DNA of 45,855 nt from a virus (lineage: Duplodnaviria > Heunggongvirae > Uroviricota > Caudoviricetes): IMG/VR virus record IMGVR_UViG_2531839662_000038; one strand, given 5' to 3'. The notes beneath the pieces were generated by a model. The model was not told where the DNA came from. It did no database searches and was given only the letters and a program-made list of their open reading frames with translations. How positions within the stretch are numbered: position 1 is the first letter of the stretch; every line of letters begins with the position of its first letter. A program made the translations under genes and the position numbers. Positions 1,421-17,636 of the stretch are shown piece after piece.

Positions 1421-2489
1421 ATTTGATTTCAATTTTGTCCCACTCCCTGCCTCTGTCATCACGATACTGTGATGCCATGGTGTCCGACTTATGCCCGAGA
1501 AGATGTTGAGCAAACTTATCGCTTATCTGCTTCTCATAGAGTCTTGCAGACAAACTGCGCAACTCGTGAAAGGTAGGCGGATCCCCTTCGAAGGAAAGAC
1601 CTGATGCTTTTCGTGCGCGCATAAAATACCTTGATACTGTGCCGGATGAAAGCGGTTCGCGACGAGTAGATGCAATTATGGTTTCTCCGCCAAGAATCTC
1701 TTTGCATTTATCAAGTGTTTCCTTCATTGATATTCCGAGAGCATCAACATGCAATGCTGTTGGGATGGCAATTTTTACGCCTGTTTTGCTTTGCTCGACA
1801 TAAAGATATCCATCTACGATATCAGACCACTTCATTTCGCATAAATCACCAACTCGTTGCCCGGTAACAACAGCCAGTTCCATTGCAAGTCTGAGCCAAC
1901 ATGGTGATGATTCTGCTGCTTGATAAATTTTCAGGTATTCGTCAGCCGTAAGTCTTGATCTCCTTACCTCTGATTTTGCTGCGCGAGTGGCAGCGACAGG
2001 GTTTGTTGTTATATGGCCTTCAGCTATTGCCTCTCGGAATGCATCGCTCAGTGTTGATCTGATTAACTTGGCTGACGCCGCCTTGCCCTCGTCTATGTAT
2101 CCATTGAGCATTGCCGCAATTTCTTTTGTGGTGATGTCTTCAAGTGGAGCATCAGGCAGACCCCTCCTTATTGCTTTAATTTTGCTCATGTAATTTATGA
2201 GTGTCTTCTGCTTGATTCCTCTGCTGGCCAGGATTTTTTCGTAGCGATCAAGCCATGAATGTAACGTAACGGAATTATCACTGTTGATTCTCGCTGTCAG
2301 AGGCTTGTGTTTGTGTCCTGAAAATAACTCAATGTTGGCCTGTATAGCTTCAGTGATTGCGATTCGCCTGTCTCGGCCTAATCCAAACTCTTTACCCGTC
2401 CTTGGGTCCCTGTAGCAGTAATATCCATTGTTTCTTATATAAAGGTTAGGGGGTAAATCCCGGCGCTCATGACTTCGCCTTCTTCCCAT
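1419..2489 (-). CDS. int: Tyrosine integrase, lambda Int type
   Basis: 356-aa ORF starting MGRRRSHERRDLPPNLYIRNNGYYCYRDPRTGKEF, recognised as lambda Int; transcribed toward attL. Confidence 0.97.
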   Translation of the reverse strand: MGRRRSHERRDLPPNLYIRNNGYYCYRDPRTGKEFGLGRDRRIAITEAIQANIELFSGHKHKPLTARINSDNSVTLHSWLDRYEKILASRGIKQKTLINYMSKIKAIRRGLPDAPLEDITTKEIAAMLNGYIDEGKAASAKLIRSTLSDAFREAIAEGHITTNPVAATRAAKSEVRRSRLTADEYLKIYQAAESSPCWLRLAMELAVVTGQRVGDLCEMKWSDIVDGYLYVEQSKTGVKIAIPTALHVDALGISMKETLDKCKEILGGETIIASTRREPLSSGTVSRYFMRARKASGLSFEGDPPTFHELRSLSARLYEKQISDKFAQHLLGHKSDTMASQYRDDRGREWDKIEIK

Positions 2490-2685
2490 TTCTGATCCTC
2501 TTCAAAAGGCTACCTGTTATTGGTCGATTTAAGTCAACCTTTACTGCTGATTCGTGGAACAAATACTCTCTTCCGTCCTTAATCGGTGGTGGGAATATCC
2601 TGCACTCGCGTACCCATCGACGAACTGTTTCAAGGCTTCTTGGGCGCCGCTGGCGTGCGTTCCACTCCTGAAGTGTCAAGTACAT
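2467..2685 (-). CDS. xis: Excisionase, lambda Xis type
   Basis: 72-aa ORF MYLTLQEWNARQRRPRSLETVRRWVRE..., overlaps int start as in lambda. Confidence 0.95.
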   Translation of the reverse strand: MYLTLQEWNARQRRPRSLETVRRWVRECRIFPPPIKDGREYLFHESAVKVDLNRPITGSLLKRIRNGKKAKS

Positions 2686-2769
2686 CGCAAAGTCTCCGCA
2701 ATTACTCGCAAGGGAACGAGTAGTGGTTGATTTTCTCCAACAAAAAAGGAGCCGAAGCTCCTTTGATGA

Positions 2770-3393
2770 TTAAAATTCGAATTGTCTCGCCCGAAGGCTT
2801 TTCAACATTGGTCTTGCCCGTTCGAAAACGGCGCTTGTCTGGTCAAGTCGTGTCGCCTCCCTGAGCAGTACATCTCTGTTTTTCGTCACCGCATAGAAGG
2901 TTTCAAACGCAATGTCATACAGCTTACTCGCGTATGATGAGTTAAGTTCCTTCATTATCGGGTACAGGCGTTTGCAGATGTCCTGTGCATTCTCCATCTG
3001 TACCTGCATGTAGCAGAGGAGGATGATTTCCTCGTCTGTGAATTGCTGCGCTGGTTGCATGCTGCGAAGTTTCTTTTCGCACTCGATGAAGTATCGGCGT
3101 ATCTGGCGGCCTTTTTCGTTGCGCTCGACCATTGCCAGCTCTTTGGCTGTGTCGAGGGTGAGGTGGTAATCCTTGCGGTTGTGACCGCCTCTACCAGATG
3201 TTTGCTTTCCCAAATTGGAAAGCAAAATATAGTCTTGATTTTCAATGAATTCGTATTCTGAAATGCGATTTGTAATCCATGCCGCAAACACCTTTTTCAC
3301 GCCTAAAAAAGCATGCAGATTGCGGGCATTGCAGAGTAGGGCTGTTTCGTTGGCGATAGTGCCGTTGAATACGGGGATGAGTTGACTGGTCAT
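2770..3393 (-). CDS. Phage antirepressor-like protein (AntA/KilAC-type domain), accessory early-left gene
   Basis: 207-aa ORF; segment DYHLTLDTAKELAMVERNEKGRQIRRYFIE resembles the conserved antirepressor C-terminal motif; family call from memory only. Confidence 0.5.
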   Translation of the reverse strand: MTSQLIPVFNGTIANETALLCNARNLHAFLGVKKVFAAWITNRISEYEFIENQDYILLSNLGKQTSGRGGHNRKDYHLTLDTAKELAMVERNEKGRQIRRYFIECEKKLRSMQPAQQFTDEEIILLCYMQVQMENAQDICKRLYPIMKELNSSYASKLYDIAFETFYAVTKNRDVLLREATRLDQTSAVFERARPMLKSLRARQFEF

Positions 3394-4367: not shown

Positions 4368-4988
4368 TTAATCATCTGCTTGCAGTGGTGGTAAATCCGG
4401 CACTGTTACGCCAAACAATGCAGCCAGCGCACGATAGTTTTGCTCACTGTGATAGCGGCCTTTACAGCGAACCAGTTTTTCAGCGGCTGTAACAATCGAG
4501 CTTTGTTCTGCTATGCGCTTTTCTGAGGCTTCAAGTAACGCCTGCTTGTCGCGTAGTGCTTCTTCCAGTTCAGCAACATGGCATTCACTATCAATGAGGT
4601 TGTTCTCTGTTGCTTCCAGCTCAACACGCAGCTTCACTACCGTTAGCGCAATATCCTCGTTCTCCTGATCGCGGAGTTTGATGTATTGCTGGTTTCTTTC
4701 CCGTTCATCCAGCAGTGCCAGCACAGTAACAGGATTGGCTGCGGCGATGAATTCAGCATTGGCCTGCTGTTCCATTTGGAAATCTTCATCGAAACCGCTT
4801 TCAGGATGCACTCCTTCAATTCTGCAAATGGGAAGATATCCAACAACGTCACGATGAATTAGCGCATCATCACAATCAAATCGGCTCTCTCCATATTCTA
4901 GCGACCACACACCACACGTTGCTTTCTCTGCCTTTTCACGCAGTGCCTGATAATCAATCTGGCTCACTGGTTGCCTCCTTTGCGCCAC
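4368..4988 (-). CDS. Ead/Ea22-like protein
   Basis: 206-aa ORF with central coiled coil; resembles Ea22-family proteins of lambdoid early-left regions. Confidence 0.5.
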
Positions 4989-11659: not shown

Positions 11660-12607
11660 ATGAGCAATACAGCAAAAATCTACGATTTCAGCGCCGCACA
11701 CGAGCGCAGGAGCAACAGGATGGAGAACCAGAAAACTGGTTACATTCCGTTGTACCGGAGCATTCTGAAACAGTCATGGGCGAAAGATGTTTATCTTCGC
11801 ACCCTGTGGGAAAACCTTCTCCTGAATGCCGCCAGAAAGCCACACAAAGCGAATTTCAAAGGTCATGAATGGCATCTGCAACCCGGTCAACTGGTTGTGA
11901 CAGCAGCTGATTTAGGTCTTCAGTTATGCGACAGGCATGGCAAGCCGGCAAGCCGTGATCAGGTTGAGCGGATGCTTCAGGTTTTTGTGAAAGAGGGGAT
12001 GATCACCATTGATGGAGAGAAGCAAAAAGGTCGTGTGATCACCATCACGAATTACCATGAATATGCTCAAAAAATGGACAATTCACCCGCACATGAAGCC
12101 GCACAAACAACCGCACATGACGCCGCACATGACGAAGCCAGTAATGGCGCGGCTTTCAGCGTACATGCCGCACATGAAAGCGCACATGAAGCCGCACAAA
12201 CAACCGCACATCATGAACAAGAAGGTATTAACAAGAATATAAATAATACCCCCCTACCCCCCAATGGGGGAGGCGATGGGCAGGTTAAACCTGAACGTCG
12301 CAAGGCAGAACGAATCGACTATGAATCCTTCCTGAATGCCTACAACACCGAAGTCGGTGACAGACTGCCACACGCTGTTGCGGTCAACGAGAAACGCAAA
12401 CGTCGCCTGAAGAAAATCATTCCGCAACTGAAAACGCCAAACGTGGACGGTTTCAGAGCGTATGTCAGGGCGTTTGTGCATCAGGCCAAGCCGTTTTACT
12501 TCGGAGACAACGACACGGGCTGGACGGCAGATTTTGATTACCTGCTGAGGGAAGATTCGTTAACGGGAGTACGGGAAGGGAAGTTTGCAGACAGGGGGAT
12601 TGCATGA
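11660..12607 (+). CDS. O: Replication initiator, O-like (P22 gene 18-like), containing the iteron origin
   Basis: 315-aa ORF starting [10 protein letters not shown] (compare lambda O MTNTAKI...); internal iteron array followed by an AT-rich tract. Confidence 0.65.
12085..12250. repeat. Origin iterons: repeated CCGCACATGA / GCCGCACAAACAA units followed by an AT-rich tract
   Basis: At least six CGCACATGA copies between 12087 and 12213, including two near-identical 29-bp units; AT-rich 12215..12250. Confidence 0.7.
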
Positions 12608-13980
12608 GACAGGATATCGAAGCGAGCGTTATCGGTGGCCTGCTGATTGGTGGATTAACTCCAACCGCCAGTGACGTTCTGGCAACGCTTGAGCCGGAAG
12701 CGTTTTCAATTCCGCTCTACAGGAAAGCCTTCGAGGTTATCCGCAAGCAGGCGAGAAACAGAAACCTAATCGATGCGCTGATGGTTGCCGAGGCGTGCGG
12801 AGAGGAGCATTTCACGTCAATCCTGATGACCAGCAAAAACTGCCCGAGTGCCGCAAACCTGAAGGGATATGCCGGAATGGTCGCGGATAACTATCACCGC
12901 CGTCTGGTGCTGGAAATCATGGATGAAATGCGTGAACCAATTCAGAGCGGAACCATCGACGCATCGAGTCAGGCGATGGATGAGCTTGTAAAGCGTCTCT
13001 CAGCCATCAGAAAGCCCCGTGACGAGGTTAAACCTGTACGGTTAGGGGAAATCATCACCGACTACACTGACACGCTTGACAGGCGTCTGAGGAACGGAGA
13101 AGGGTCAGATACCCTGAAGACCGGAATCGAAGAACTTGACGCCATCACCGGAGGGATGAACGCAGAAGACCTGGTGATTATCGCTGCTCGTCCTGGTATG
13201 GGGAAAACCGAGCTGGCGCTGAAGATTGCCGAAGGCGTTGCAAGCCGCGTTATTCCAGGTTCTGACGTTCGGCGCGGAGTATTGATTTTCTCAATGGAAA
13301 TGAGCGCATTGCAGATTGCAGAGCGAAGCATTGCCAACGCCGGGAGGATGTCGGTTAGCGTACTGCGAAATCCTGCATCGATGGATGACGAAGGCTGGGC
13401 GCGTGTTGCTAACGGCATGAGTCAGCTTGCAGATTTGGATGTATGGGTAGTCGATGCCTCGCGGTTATCGGTCGAAGAAATACGCTCAATCGCAGAACGG
13501 CACAAACAGGAAAATCCAAACCTCTCACTCATCATGGCGGATTATCTTGGCCTGATTGAGAAGCCGAAAGCAGACCGCAACGACCTCGCAATTGCTCACA
13601 TCTCCGGAAGCCTGAAGGCGATGGCGAAAGACCTGAAAACGCCTGTTATCTCCCTGAGTCAGCTTTCTCGCGATGTTGAGAAGCGACCAAACAAACGCCC
13701 GACAAACGCAGATTTGCGTGATTCAGGAAGCATTGAGCAGGACGCAGACTCAATCATCATGCTCTATCGGGAAGCGGTGTATGACGAGAACAGTAGCGCC
13801 GCGCCATTTGCTGAAATCATCGTGACGAAAAACCGTTTTGGCTCACTTGGTACGGTTTACCAGCGGTTCTGTAACGGACACTTTGTTGCATGTGACCAGG
13901 ATGAAGCCAGACAGATTTGCACAGCATCAAATGCGCCTGCTGCGCGTGGCAGACGATATGCACAAGGGGCGGACGTATGA
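12604..13980 (+). CDS. Replicative DNA helicase, DnaB family (P22 gene 12-like)
   Basis: 458-aa ORF; Walker A ARPGMGKT, DnaB-like C-terminal domain; start overlaps O-like stop. Confidence 0.85.
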
Positions 13981-14061
13981 CCATCTACATCACTGAGCTA
14001 ATAACAGGGGCTATTTACACAGTAGCCCTTTTTTATTGGATTAAGAACGAGGGGGATCCTG

Positions 14062-14274
14062 ATGGACACCGTTAACGGAATGTGTTCAGACGCACCGCGT
14101 GCCAAAAAATGTAAGTGCGGAAAATCACCGACAATATTCGACATGGAGAACGGGTGCCAAATCTACTGCGCTAACCACGCTGCTGTGGCGGCCGCGAATT
14201 ATCGCAGTGCGGTAACGGAGTGGAATAACCTGAAATCTGTTAGAGAGGGAAGTCATGAAAAAACTAACCTTTGA
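14062..14274 (+). CDS. Hypothetical small Cys-rich protein
   Basis: 70-aa ORF with CKCG...C...C pattern in the position of ren/ninA. Confidence 0.4.
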   Translation: MDTVNGMCSDAPRAKKCKCGKSPTIFDMENGCQIYCANHAAVAAANYRSAVTEWNNLKSVREGSHEKTNL

Positions 14275-14671
14275 AATTCGATCCCCAGCACATCAGCAAA
14301 ACGCTATTCACGCGGTACAGAAAATTCTTCCAGACCCAACCAAACCAATCGTAGTAACCATTCAGGAACGCAACCGCAGCATTCGGCAAAATGCACGCCT
14401 TCACGCGATGCTATCTGAAATAAGTAAGAAGGCTACATATCATGGGAAAGCAAGAAATATTGAGTTTTGGAAGGGGTTATTCGTTTCTGGTTGGCAGATT
14501 GCAACCAACCAGCACCCTGAGATTATATCAGGGTTAGAAGGTGAGCTAATAAACATCAGAGAGAGTACGGCGACTCTATCTGTAAAAAAAATATCCGAAA
14601 TAATGGACTACATAGAAGCATATTGTGCCATGAACTCAATTCATCTTAGCGAATGGAGGAATTATGATTGA
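14255..14671 (+). CDS. ninB: NinB (Orf-family recombination protein), C-terminally altered
   Basis: Starts MKKLTFEIRSPAHQQNAIHAVQKILPDPTKPIVVTIQERNRS as lambda NinB; ends ...SEWRNYD just where the HNH gene begins. Confidence 0.8.
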   Translation: MKKLTFEIRSPAHQQNAIHAVQKILPDPTKPIVVTIQERNRSIRQNARLHAMLSEISKKATYHGKARNIEFWKGLFVSGWQIATNQHPEIISGLEGELINIRESTATLSVKKISEIMDYIEAYCAMNSIHLSEWRNYD

Positions 14672-15266
14672 GGTTTGGGTAGATATCGAAGGAATTCCAT
14701 TTTATCAGGTTAGCAATAAAGGAAATTTCAGGTCTATTACGAGGGAAATTACAGTAACATCAACCAGACAGAGGCCATATAAGAAAATAATTAATGGCAC
14801 TAGCGTAAAACCATTCAAGTGCAAGTCGACAGGATATCTTCAAATAAAGGTATACGGTAAGAAATACAGCGCCCACAGGATAGTTGCGAAAGCATTCTGT
14901 ACAGGGTTCTGTGATGGCTTGGTAGTTAATCACAAAAATGGGCAAAGAGATGACAATAGGGCTGAAAACCTTGAGTGGGTATCACATTCTGAAAACTCAA
15001 AGCACGGATATAAACAAAATGGAAGAATACCTATATCGCTAGGTAAATTTAGTGGTGATCATCCTGCCAGTAAAGCTGTTATTTCTACTGACATGAAAAC
15101 TGGGGAGGAGGTTTATTATGAAGCAGCTATGGATGCTGTCAGAGAAGGATTTGATAGTTCGTCAATTAGTCGTTGCTGTAATGGCGAAAGCTCATATCAC
15201 AAAGGAAGATTCTGGCGATTTGCAAATGAAACAATGAAAGCGCGATGGGGAGATCGGGCCGCATGA
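14664..15266 (+). CDS. HNH homing endonuclease (NUMOD4-like N-terminus plus HNH_3 motif) inserted at the ninB 3' end
   Basis: 200-aa ORF; motifs VWVDIEGIPFYQVSNKGNFRS and VNHKNGQRDDNRAENLEW; GGAGG Shine-Dalgarno; C-terminal KARWGDRAA looks like a NinB tail; stop overlaps methylase ATG. Confidence 0.8.
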   Translation: MIEVWVDIEGIPFYQVSNKGNFRSITREITVTSTRQRPYKKIINGTSVKPFKCKSTGYLQIKVYGKKYSAHRIVAKAFCTGFCDGLVVNHKNGQRDDNRAENLEWVSHSENSKHGYKQNGRIPISLGKFSGDHPASKAVISTDMKTGEEVYYEAAMDAVREGFDSSSISRCCNGESSYHKGRFWRFANETMKARWGDRAA

Positions 15267-15790
15267 CTATCAAATCAAATACGCCAGCACACGACAAGGA
15301 CTGCTGGCAAACGCCGCTTTGGCTTTTTGATGCACTGGATATTGAGTTTGGATTCTGGCTGGATTCGGCAGCGAGCGACAAAAATGCTTTATGCGCTCAC
15401 TGGCTAACTGAGGCCGACGACGCGCTCAATTCTGAGTGGGTAAGCCACGGTGCAATCTGGAATAACCCACCGTACAGCAATATCAGGCCGTGGGTGGAAA
15501 AAGCCGCTGAGCAGTGCATACAACAGCGACAGACGGTAGTTATGCTTGTGCCAGAGGATATGTCAGTCGGATGGTTCAGCAAGGCTCTGGAGAGTGTCGA
15601 CGAAGTTCGCATTATCACTGATGGACGGATTAATTTTATCGAACCATCGACAGGGCTGGAGAAGAAGGGAAACAGCAAAGGCTCCATGCTGCTGATTTGG
15701 CGACCGTTCATCAGTCCTCGACGGATGTTTACTACCGTATCCAAAGCGGCATTGATGGCAATCGGGCAGGGCGTCAGGAGGGCGGCATGA
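15263..15790 (+). CDS. Phage DNA N6-adenine methyltransferase (Dam-like), in the ninC position
   Basis: 175 aa from ATG at 15263 (ATGA overlap); NPPY motif (IWNNPPYSN). Confidence 0.7.
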
Positions 15791-15963
15791 GGCGACAGCG
15801 ACGAAGTTTCACCGACATCATCTGCGAAAACTGCAAATACCTTCCAACGAAACGCTCCAGAAATAAACGCAAGCCAATCCCGAAAGAATCTGACGTAAAA
15901 ACCTTCAACTACACGGCTCACCTGTGGGATATCCGGTGGCTAAGACATCGTGCGAGGAAATGA
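15787..15963 (+). CDS. ninE: NinD/NinE-family small protein
   Basis: 58 aa [58 protein letters not shown]; ATGA-coupled to the methylase gene. Confidence 0.6.
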
Positions 15964-16331: not shown

Positions 16332-16500
16332 CCCATCCCAATCCATTCAATACCAGAAAGAAAGCGTCGAGCGGGCTTTAACGTGCGCTAACTGCGGTCA
16401 GAAGCTGCATGTGCTGGAAGTTCACGTGTGCTCCGATTGCTGCGCAGAACTGATGAGCGATCCGAATAGCTCAATGTACGAGGAAGAAGACGATGGCTAA
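16324..16500 (+). CDS. ninF: NinF
   Basis: 58-aa ORF below the ORF-track cut-off, [58 protein letters not shown], recognised as NinF. Confidence 0.75.
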   Translation: MLSPSQSIQYQKESVERALTCANCGQKLHVLEVHVCSDCCAELMSDPNSSMYEEEDDG

Positions 16501-17059
16501 ACCAGCGCGAAGACGATGTAACCGTAAAAGAGAAGATTTAACTGTTAAAAGGATATTTGAGTTACTAAGTTTCGATAAATCTACCGGTGTATTTAGATGG
16601 AAAGTTCCCACTCAGGGAAGGATAGCATTAAATAGTGTTGCTGGAACTTTTGATTCCAACGGTTATTCAATGATCATGATTGATGGGCGTAGATATAAAA
16701 CTCACGTCTTAGTTTTTTACATAACTCATAATCGTTGGCCTGCTGGTCAAATTGACCACGTTAATGGAATTAGGACCGACAATAGGCCAGAAAATTTAAG
16801 AGAATGCCTGCCAATAGAAAATTCAAGAAATATAAGGATCCGAAAGAATAGCAAATCAGGTTGCAGAGGAGTTACTTGGCACAAACGACAGAAAAAATGG
16901 AATGTTAGGCTAGGTTTCCATGGCAAGAGTAAACACTTCGGATGCTTTGATGATCTGGAGTTAGCGGTACTAGTTGCTGAAGAAGCCCGAGATAAGTATT
17001 ACGGTGATTTTTCCGGCAACGAAAGGAGCACTTATGCGAATCTATCGAAGGAAATGTAA
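16493..17059 (+). CDS. HNH endonuclease with AP2-type DNA-binding domain, inserted at the ninF/ninG junction
   Basis: 188-aa ORF; HNH motif [19 protein letters not shown]2-like [27 protein letters not shown]; N-terminus MAKPARRRC resembles a NinG N-terminus; overlaps ninG start by 26 nt. Confidence 0.8.
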
Positions 17060-17636
17060 ATGTTGCAATGAATGGTTTATACCAAAATATCAAAATCAAT
17101 ATTGGTGTAATGAGATTTGTGGAACAAAGATAGCACTCGAACGACGAAGCAAAGAACGCGAAAAAGCGGAAAAAGCAGCAGAGAAGAAACTACGACGAGA
17201 GGAGCAGAAACAGAAAGATAAACTGAAGATTCGAAAACTCGCCTTAAAGCCCCGCAGTTACTGGATTAAACAAGCCCAACAAGCCGTAAACGCCTTCATC
17301 AGAGAAAGAGACCGCGACTTACCATGTATCTCGTGCGGAACGCTCACGTCTGCTCAGTGGGATGCCGGACATTACCGGACAACTGCTGCGGCACCTCAAC
17401 TCCGATTTGATGAACGCAATATTCACAAGCAATGCGTGGTGTGCAACCAGCACAAAAGCGGAAATCTCGTTCCGTATCGCGTCGAACTGATTAATCGCAT
17501 CGGGCAGGAAGCAGTAGACGAAATCGAATCAAACCATAACCGCCATCGCTGGACTGTCGAAGAGTGCAGGGCCATCAAGGCGGAGTATCAACAGAAACTT
17601 AAAAAACTGCGAAACAGCAGAAGTGAGGCTGCATGA
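17034..17636 (+). CDS. ninG: NinG (Rap-family recombination endonuclease)
   Basis: 200 aa from ATG at 17034 with AAAGGAG Shine-Dalgarno; Cys-rich CxxC motifs; the ORF-track start at 16974 is inside the HNH gene. Confidence 0.8.

Follow-up and report, generated by a model that had tools for sequence, protein, structure and literature searches.

The virus record IMGVR_UViG_2531839662_000038 (IMG/VR; Caudoviricetes) is a stretch of 45,855 nucleotides that is referred to here, at its full length, as the window. In its nin region, a gene of the NinB family, termed ninB' (14255-14671), is overlapped at its 3' end by an open reading frame (ORF) for an HNH endonuclease (14664-15266), which in turn overlaps a dam methyltransferase gene (15263-15790). 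All three are on the + strand. The endonuclease gene is a free-standing relative of the I-HmuI family, and it probably travels with its own ninB' allele as a two-gene cassette that moves by intron-less homing. The cassette stands in place of most of a lambda-type ninB, whose last codons persist as an in-frame C-terminal extension of the endonuclease.

Replacement of part of a lambda-type ninB

The event is defined by comparison with an empty site. A prophage of Escherichia coli O145:H28 RM13514 lacks the HNH gene and is colinear with the window, with 97.7% identity over 12600-14380 and 15236-15960. Between these flanks, the window has 855 bp (14381-15235) versus 284 bp of lambda-type ninB in the RM13514 prophage. 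Because 855 bp stand for 284 bp between colinear flanks, the event is a replacement, not an insertion of the endonuclease alone: lambda-type ninB codons 43-137 have given way to the 3' two-thirds of a ninB of another subfamily ("subfamily 2") plus the endonuclease gene. The colinear genomes of phi419 and phi296 show the same presence/absence polymorphism at this site.

The left boundary of this mosaic block, 14380/14381, falls in a conserved ERNRS motif. Codons 1-42 of ninB' (14255-14380) are a lambda-type 5' module with ~97% DNA identity to 2G7b ninB, and would serve as a left homology arm; from 14381 on, identity to lambda-type ninB is at background level only. The 138-residue product matches Pfam NinB (E = 2.2e-40, model positions 2-129 of 131) and ends in ...HLSEWRNYD, with its TGA stop (14669-14671) lying inside codons 2-3 of the endonuclease gene. 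That gene is read in the +1 frame relative to ninB, and its Shine-Dalgarno sequence GGAGG (14655-14659) and ATG (14664), together spanning 14655-14666, sit within the final ninB' codons. The last residues of NinB' (W/G-R-x-Y-D/E-stop) are consequently co-encoded by the ribosome-binding site, the ATG and codons 2-3 of the endonuclease gene (tATGAnTGA). An identical arrangement of Shine-Dalgarno sequence, ATG and ninB' stop occurs in SEN22, in Yersinia and at locus L011 (surveyed loci are designated here by L numbers, and surveyed proteins by P numbers). These ORFs, with the GGAGG and the overlap with dam, had been described in an earlier reading of the letters alone (the original prediction), and ORF and Pfam analyses agree with it.

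The unit has entered unrelated backgrounds. Positions 14243-15266 recur with 98.7% identity in the P22-like phage APC_JM3.2, where the neighbours on both sides are unrelated, and the cassette is also found in Shiga toxin (Stx) phages of the genus Traversvirus. At IMG/VR locus L042, the part in common is 14361-15266, and dam is absent. The ninB' 3' part was detected in 65 records of the phage collection, each with an adjoining HNH gene. Among 5426 complete E. coli genomes, the block is present in 77 (80 places), at full length every time, and the HNH-less lambda-type ninB 3' part is present in 1307. Thus, a linked variant of the target gene is inherited with the endonuclease in all 65 phage records and at 80 of 80 places in E. 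coli.

Positions 13700-15800 are also 100% identical to a prophage of E. coli UMNF18 (NZ_AGTD01000001.1, 807204-810617). The interval there measures 3414 bp versus 2101 bp in the window, and IS1203 is listed in it, which points to an insertion of that element in UMNF18 and none in the window.

The NinB C-terminus carried by the endonuclease

The endonuclease ORF closes with 30 nucleotides (15237-15266, AAAGCGCGATGGGGAGATCGGGCCGCATGA) that derive from the 3' end of lambda-type ninB, matching 29/30 nucleotides of 2G7b and 28/30 of phi296. Read in the old ninB frame, this stub consists of nine codons (KARWGDRAA) followed by the old ninB stop, TGA. The identity to lambda-type ninB carries on into dam (Pfam Dam, 6.4e-65), whose start overlaps the stub stop as ATGA and which would provide a right homology arm. 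At the right junction (15235-15237), the endonuclease ORF is still open. A short linker, NETM (15225-15236), forms the right end of the cassette at a position common to SEN22 (ADERM), with homology to SEN22 stopping at 15229 and homology to lambda-type ninB starting at 15236/15237. NinB proteins of 2G7b, phi296 and P22 have either a KARWGDRAA-type end or ...ECKARFGDAA. It had been predicted that KARWGDRAA is the canonical NinB C-terminus, joined in frame to the endonuclease, and that the ATGA overlap with the methylase is the native downstream junction of ninB. All three points hold, and alignment of the tail with ninB gave the 29/30 match.

Several nin-region genes end on a common motif, GCNGCATGA, including the ninB stub (15257-15266), dam (15781-15790) and ninG. 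The encoded proteins end in ...AA*, and the ATG of the next gene overlaps the stop. The junction of the L042 locus (L042 2789-2800) lies inside this motif, which looks like a linker for module exchange.

A tail that is intrinsic to the endonuclease, or that resembles NinB by chance, with the ninB ORF having its natural end, is extremely improbable. It could draw on HNH-less subfamily-2 NinB proteins, which have short natural ends, and on the 'AA*' ends that are generic in the nin region (Dam ...RRAA, NinG ...SEAA). However, the 29/30 identity is to a lambda-type ninB that is contiguous with dam, and homologues of the endonuclease elsewhere lack the tail. In addition, an HNH-AP2 protein that is unrelated to the window endonuclease but occupies the same site, at locus L009, ends in ...AIEWASRFGDKQRAAA, which is lambda NinB-like, whereas the window's other HNH-AP2 protein (16493-17059) has no NinB-like end. 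For ninB' itself, a natural end is possible.

The endonuclease

Residues 1-187 of the 200-residue ORF product (14664-15224) correspond to an I-HmuI-type HNH endonuclease, with a NUMOD4 domain (Pfam, 1.5e-13), an HNH_3 domain (8.2e-12; 45 bits, cut-off 24.8) and a NUMOD-like DNA-binding domain. Its sole solved relative is I-HmuI (1U3E; E = 4.7e-14), aligned over residues 55-186; the I-HmuI sequence itself finishes four residues past the end of the aligned region. In the HNH motif, H90, N92, N98 and N102 are invariant across 32 homologues. A tblastn search with the HNH protein returned ~1000 phage records, including the intron-encoded enzymes I-HmuI of SPO1 and I-KsaIII of Staphylococcus phage K. 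Outside the ninB locus, alignments of the family stop at about residue 187-194, and none goes beyond ~194. An AlphaFold model (32 homologues) has a mean predicted local distance difference test score (pLDDT) of 86.9, with a last strand at 182-186, and renders residues 189-199 as a low-confidence helix (pLDDT ~57). Because both the homology and the confident part of the model end there, residues 1 to ~187 constitute the enzyme, and the last ~13 residues are something else. The matches to NUMOD4, HNH_3 and 1U3E bear out the earlier view that the ORF encodes a homing-type HNH endonuclease.

Members of the I-HmuI group are typically recognized by the HNH motif, by flanking NUMOD4 and C-terminal NUMOD/helix-turn-helix domains, and by location within a self-splicing group I intron. 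The window protein has the motif and the flanking domains but not the location; its ORF fills the entire insert. A scan of 13900-15900 against Rfam, on both strands at E <= 1, gave no match and so no intron or ribozyme, and therefore the endonuclease is not intron-borne. Judged by sequence, it is a free-standing homing-type gene of the I-HmuI family rather than an intron-encoded member.

The same data bear on the idea that the insert is removed or bypassed, as a group I or group II intron, as an intein, or by programmed frameshifting or bypassing, so that full-length NinB is made. I-HmuI and many of its relatives are intron-encoded, and the stub has kept the frame of the original ninB, as this idea would have it. 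However, besides the empty Rfam scan, the 580-nucleotide interval is all endonuclease ORF and leaves no room for an intron core, inspection of the ninB' stop revealed neither a slippery site nor prfB-like spacing, and the two would-be exons in the window come from different ninB subfamilies. We give this idea almost no credence. The intein version is ruled out: ninB' terminates at a stop codon of its own, the endonuclease is read in a different frame (+1 with respect to ninB'), and no Pfam intein domains are present.

The ninB' allele

NinB' belongs to a distinct, short-tailed NinB subfamily, subfamily 2 (NARLHAMLSEISK...FWKGLFVSGWQIATNQHPEI). Thus, codons 43-138 of ninB' and the tail on the endonuclease come from different NinB subfamilies. 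Compared with lambda Orf (1PC6; E = 1.3e-33), NinB' residues 1-130 align onto residues 1-126, and NinB' IHLSEW pairs with lambda VKWSDE (125-130), not with LEW (135-137). NinB' is a complete NinB/Orf (PF05772) core, the domain of the RAGNYA-containing dimer ring, and has no counterpart of the projecting C-terminal helix of lambda Orf (residues 131-146). It finishes 8 residues past the equivalent of lambda K126, and the equivalents of K138-A146 sit on the endonuclease. In lambda Orf, this helix is flexible, with modest contributions to DNA binding from R132, W137, R140 and W141 (PMC4118853).

Whether this ninB' allele should be called truncated is uncertain, because HNH-less subfamily-2 relatives end equally short, several of them without the helix (for example, L047 ...LSAPEDAWG and L056 ...DDRAVY). 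An HNH-less subfamily-2 protein, P0021 (...SVELCDEDLSIKKWSARWGA), offers a model of an uninterrupted, long-tailed member. An intact NinB that naturally ends in ...EWRNYD would have spoken for a native end, and among the homologues surveyed no ...RxY[D/E] ending was found without an adjoining downstream endonuclease gene. Surveys of phages, IMG/VR and GTDB genomes, together with a NinB protein search in which gene context was looked up for a few matches, turned up no HNH-less counterpart of the E. coli subfamily-2 ninB above ~60% identity. The nearest HNH-less relatives (L047/L048, L013 and L014) end differently.

The original prediction was that a precise insertion had placed the endonuclease alone in the resident ninB of this genome, with only a few codons left before the stop, and that the upstream ORF is this same ninB, truncated. 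The tail is indeed genuine lambda-type ninB. Moreover, GAATGGA at 14651-14657 resembles the 2G7b sequence GAATGGA|AAGCG, and removal of 14658-15237 would join the NinB end in frame. The structural alignment speaks differently: SEW pairs with lambda SDE, and therefore SEW followed by KARWGDRAA would not restore a colinear NinB. Insertion into the resident gene is also at odds with the exchange of 284 bp for 855 bp at the empty site, with the background-level identity of codons 43-138 to lambda-type ninB versus ~97% for codons 1-42, with the origin of body and tail in different subfamilies, and with the presence of ninB' beside the endonuclease where the tail differs (SEN22, ...ERMAA). We consider such an insertion very improbable as an account of the window, and favour the arrival of the endonuclease gene together with its ninB' allele.

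Age and turnover of the ninB'-endonuclease pair

In Salmonella phage SEN22, Yersinia, Pantoea and metagenomic contigs, an orthologous HNH gene comes after, and overlaps, every subfamily-2 ninB at 54-88% identity to that of the window. Over the full surveyed range of 54-100% identity, all have an overlapping HNH gene or its remnant. Identities of the endonuclease fall in step with those of NinB' from residue 43 onward (NinB'/endonuclease, 85/79, 71/67, 67/65 and 60/55%). The rate of nonsynonymous change (dN) is 0.08-0.29 for NinB' and 0.15-0.42 for the endonuclease, and that of synonymous change (dS) is saturated, so these data are read as dN and saturation and not as dN/dS ratios. The sequences thus indicate that the pair is old and, because dS is saturated while dN is low, that both genes have been kept functional over the long term.

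The endonuclease is also lost and exchanged. Decayed copies include a 55-residue remnant (L031) and a 123-residue remnant in Mixta (L083), and E. coli endonuclease variants (P0124-P0126) have a frameshifted C-terminus (...AKAHITKEDSGDLQMKQ). At L041 and L043, ninB' is frameshifted and the endonuclease is intact. Other HNH types occupy the ninB site as well: an unrelated HNH_3+AP2 gene at L009 and L044, and a third type at L046. At L012, a second, different HNH_3 gene (2306-3043, 245 residues) lies two genes downstream of the ninB'-endonuclease pair, beside ninE, which again indicates that homing endonucleases accumulate in nin regions.

Stubs across the endonuclease family

Read-through into a stub is widespread among relatives of the window endonuclease. 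All seven distinct HNH ORF ends that were inspected stop on GCATGA, overlapping the start of the next gene. Of 120 homologues (45-98% identity), 65 have at least nine residues past the conserved HKGxxWxF motif, and 17 of these 65 tails match NinB C-termini above shuffled sequences (z > 3). This fraction is a lower bound, since the scoring has no power below nine residues and the NinB library consisted only of relatives of the window protein. Examples of tails are WRF|SDASRLEIEWATRWGKS, AH|AFGTQRGVEWSPTSLGRAA, GTEHGVKWADEAKAA and CDMNGIELTETRKGGWLDERAA. The SEN22 endonuclease tail (...ERMAA) has only GCCGCATGA in common with P22 ninB.

The simple split of one ninB gene imagined in the original prediction is not what the window contains, but it does exist in relatives. 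L178 looks near-pristine, with a subfamily-2 ninB ending in ...INLS, the endonuclease, and then SDASRLEIEWATRWGKS (SDASRLEIEW...), split ~18 codons before the ninB stop; a 10-N scaffold gap right before the ninB' end makes its last ninB' residues uncertain. L107/L109 show a contiguous split, ...VRWT / endonuclease / EPKGQMPEQWEQAA. At L093 and L094, a complete short-tailed NinB or Orf-like gene is followed by the endonuclease and then by a stub from another ninB, in which the corresponding segment is repeated. Two loci of Pseudomonas-type phages, L097 and L108, have a gene for a coiled-coil protein, not ninB, upstream of the endonuclease. At L108, nothing NinB-like was found beyond the endonuclease tail AERGVVWSDRARQEIVDDWESA, and all of ninB but the stub seems to have been lost. 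The split, duplicated and stub-only loci, taken together with P0021, locate the original insertion ~18 codons from the stop, at the hinge that precedes the C-terminal helix; stubs were later shortened or exchanged.

The L093 locus also has a weak Pfam match to the intein domain Hom_end_hint (4541-4567) in a downstream DnaB helicase gene, which may contain an intein.

Proposed mechanism

The replacement, the linkage of the two genes and their occurrence in unrelated backbones are consistent with the following series of steps. The endonuclease would nick or cut HNH-less ninB alleles near their 3' end. The ninB' allele would be immune through its differing sequence near that end, and would still supply NinB function. 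Repair off a co-resident phage that carries the HNH gene would then copy ninB' together with the endonuclease gene, as in intron-less homing or marker exclusion. Since the intervening sequence is without homology, the left crossover would have to lie farther back, in the conserved 5' third of ninB, and the right crossover would fall in the stub or in the downstream gene. Read-through to the old stop would keep the ATGA translational coupling of the nin operon to whichever nin gene comes next, and the stub would give the cassette a right-hand homology arm within the target gene.

Several observations weigh against this scheme. The cassette is rare though targets are abundant: of the ninB copies in E. 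coli genomes that are either lambda-type or part of the cassette, it accounts for ~5%. The Pfam match to the I-HmuI NUMOD-like domain is sub-threshold (E = 8.5e-4; 19.3 bits versus a gathering score of 27). Unlike I-HmuI, the window enzyme has Asn in place of the Asp that precedes the catalytic His (VVNHKNG versus VVDHKDG), and this Asn is conserved in orthologues; in the I-HmuI structure, the Asp reportedly binds metal. Homing is what we infer from anatomy and distribution, and the benefits ascribed to the stub, coupling and a homology arm, are proposals. Finally, long co-divergence with ninB' and strong purifying selection would fit a domesticated NinB partner too.

Under domestication, the HNH protein would be a fixed partner of NinB' in phage recombination or replication, its tail helix would aid binding to DNA or to the partner, and homing would have ceased. 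Co-divergence of the pair through saturating synonymous change is as expected for such a partner, as is the lack of any HNH-less allele of the enterobacterial subfamily-2 clade in the phage, IMG/VR and GTDB surveys. Orf-like proteins fused to HNH domains are known in Gram-positive phages (DUF968; PMC4118853), and the contribution of the lambda Orf helix to DNA binding described above (PMC4118853) would give the tail something to do. However, a fixed partnership is hard to reconcile with how much varies at these loci. Three unrelated HNH architectures occupy the same site, and copies decay. A nearly identical unit occurs in unrelated phage backbones. Stubs range from 2 to ~25 codons, derive from different NinB subfamilies and in some cases (L093 and L094) duplicate the upstream segment, and at L097 and L108 the upstream gene is not ninB at all. 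Domestication is thus rather unlikely, and a cassette that moves by homing is our preferred explanation.

A further question about the homing cassette is whether the in-frame stub is a selected feature, in that it keeps coupling and places the right-hand arm inside ninB whatever lies downstream, and not a passive scar. We entertain selection of the stub as a minority possibility. If it is true, three unrelated HNH architectures would have converged on a single place and arrangement, and earlier invasions could have left the short-tailed NinB subfamilies as their scars. The transplanted piece of the C-terminal, DNA-binding helix of NinB might in that case guide the nuclease to NinB or to intermediates of recombination.

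Comparison with known systems

The intron-encoded enzymes I-HmuI, I-HmuII and I-KsaIII (SPO1, SP82 and Staphylococcus phage K) have the same order of domains as the window protein: a beta-rich NUMOD4 domain, HNH_3 and a C-terminal helix-turn-helix. However, they reside inside group I introns of DNA polymerase genes, whereas the window enzyme is free-standing at ninB and is extended by target-gene sequence.

The free-standing endonucleases SegF, SegG and MobE of T-even phages are associated with intron-less homing and marker exclusion (review PMC2988022), and in ICP1 phages nuclease genes lie at the boundaries of genetic exchange (PMC10448857). As in the window, an endonuclease in these phages lies beside a variant allele of a conserved gene, both displace the sensitive allele as a block, and the endonuclease lies at a mosaic boundary. 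They differ in that the enzymes are of GIY-YIG or other types and their genes have their own stops in intergenic positions, whereas the ORF in the window, for a predicted enzyme, overlaps the upstream gene's end and enters a stub.

In Aeromonas phage Aeh1, nrdA is split by mobE ("genes in pieces"), and both NrdA pieces are expressed separately and reassemble (PMC3045599). There, too, an endonuclease gene lies within a coding region, and new ends of the host gene's pieces are encoded by element-borne sequence. In the window, however, the 3' piece is nine codons (~25 at most in relatives), lacks a separate start because it forms the end of the endonuclease ORF, and comes from another ninB allele and lineage than the 5' piece; thus, the locus does not belong to the genes-in-pieces class.

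In Salmonella phage epsilon34, gene 31 joins the N-terminus of eaE in frame to an HNH homing endonuclease (PMC2629481). This lambdoid or P22-like phage also has a homing endonuclease ORF that continues a fragment of a resident gene. The fusion is N-terminal, like that at ninG in the window; it belongs to the early-left operon and was reported as an isolated case. In DUF968 proteins (PMC4118853), a domain related to Orf and NinB is likewise associated with an HNH nuclease, but as a single polypeptide with a zinc-finger HNH C-terminal to the Orf-like domain, whereas the window has two ORFs in different frames, with no more of NinB than its tail joined to the nuclease.

Literature on ninB or the nin region together with homing endonucleases, in a search that left most subscription journals outside, yielded no account of an association with ninB or of read-through stubs. 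These features are apparently an undescribed habit of one endonuclease family and not a new kind of system.

The endonuclease family appears to be specialized on the Orf/NinB mediator gene in Enterobacterales and, with exceptions in local context, in Pseudomonas-type phages. The locus would be a concrete case of a selfish nuclease that drives mosaic exchange inside the lambdoid nin region, and it suggests that such elements may dodge polar damage in tightly coupled operons by borrowing the last (ninB) or first (ninG) codons of a gene. The labels 'NinB' and 'NUMOD4 domain-containing protein' assigned by the Prokaryotic Genome Annotation Pipeline (PGAP) misread a common arrangement, one that occurs in Stx-converting phages, in P22-like phages and, among complete E. 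coli genomes, in ~1.4%. In practical terms, the enzyme is a candidate site-specific nickase whose target can be predicted, and natural ninB' alleles without the C-terminal helix bear on the role of this helix in vivo.

Neighbouring genes and a second endonuclease at ninG

Directly upstream of ninB' and overlapping its start is an ORF for a 70-residue Cys-rich protein (14062-14274; ...CKCGKSPTIFDMENGCQIYCANH...), which has no Pfam match at E <= 0.01. Among the features listed for related E. coli prophage regions is a 'Lar family restriction alleviation protein', which may or may not correspond to this ORF.

The second endonuclease gene of the window, at 16493-17059, encodes a 188-residue HNH_3 + AP2 protein whose first nine residues, MAKPARRRC, are the NinG N-terminus; NinG of phi419 begins MAKPARRKCK. 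The ninG gene (17034-17636; Pfam, 5e-84) restarts at an ATG at 17034, behind AAAGGAG, inside the 3' end of the endonuclease gene. The ninG case is thus a mirror image of that at ninB, with the 5' end of the gene taken over and not the 3' end. At >=80% coverage, this endonuclease is found in 4 phage records only, for example, Stx1 phage AU6Stx1. HNH-less ninF-ninG alleles have homology to the window only to ~16495, and homology resumes from ~17095-17130.

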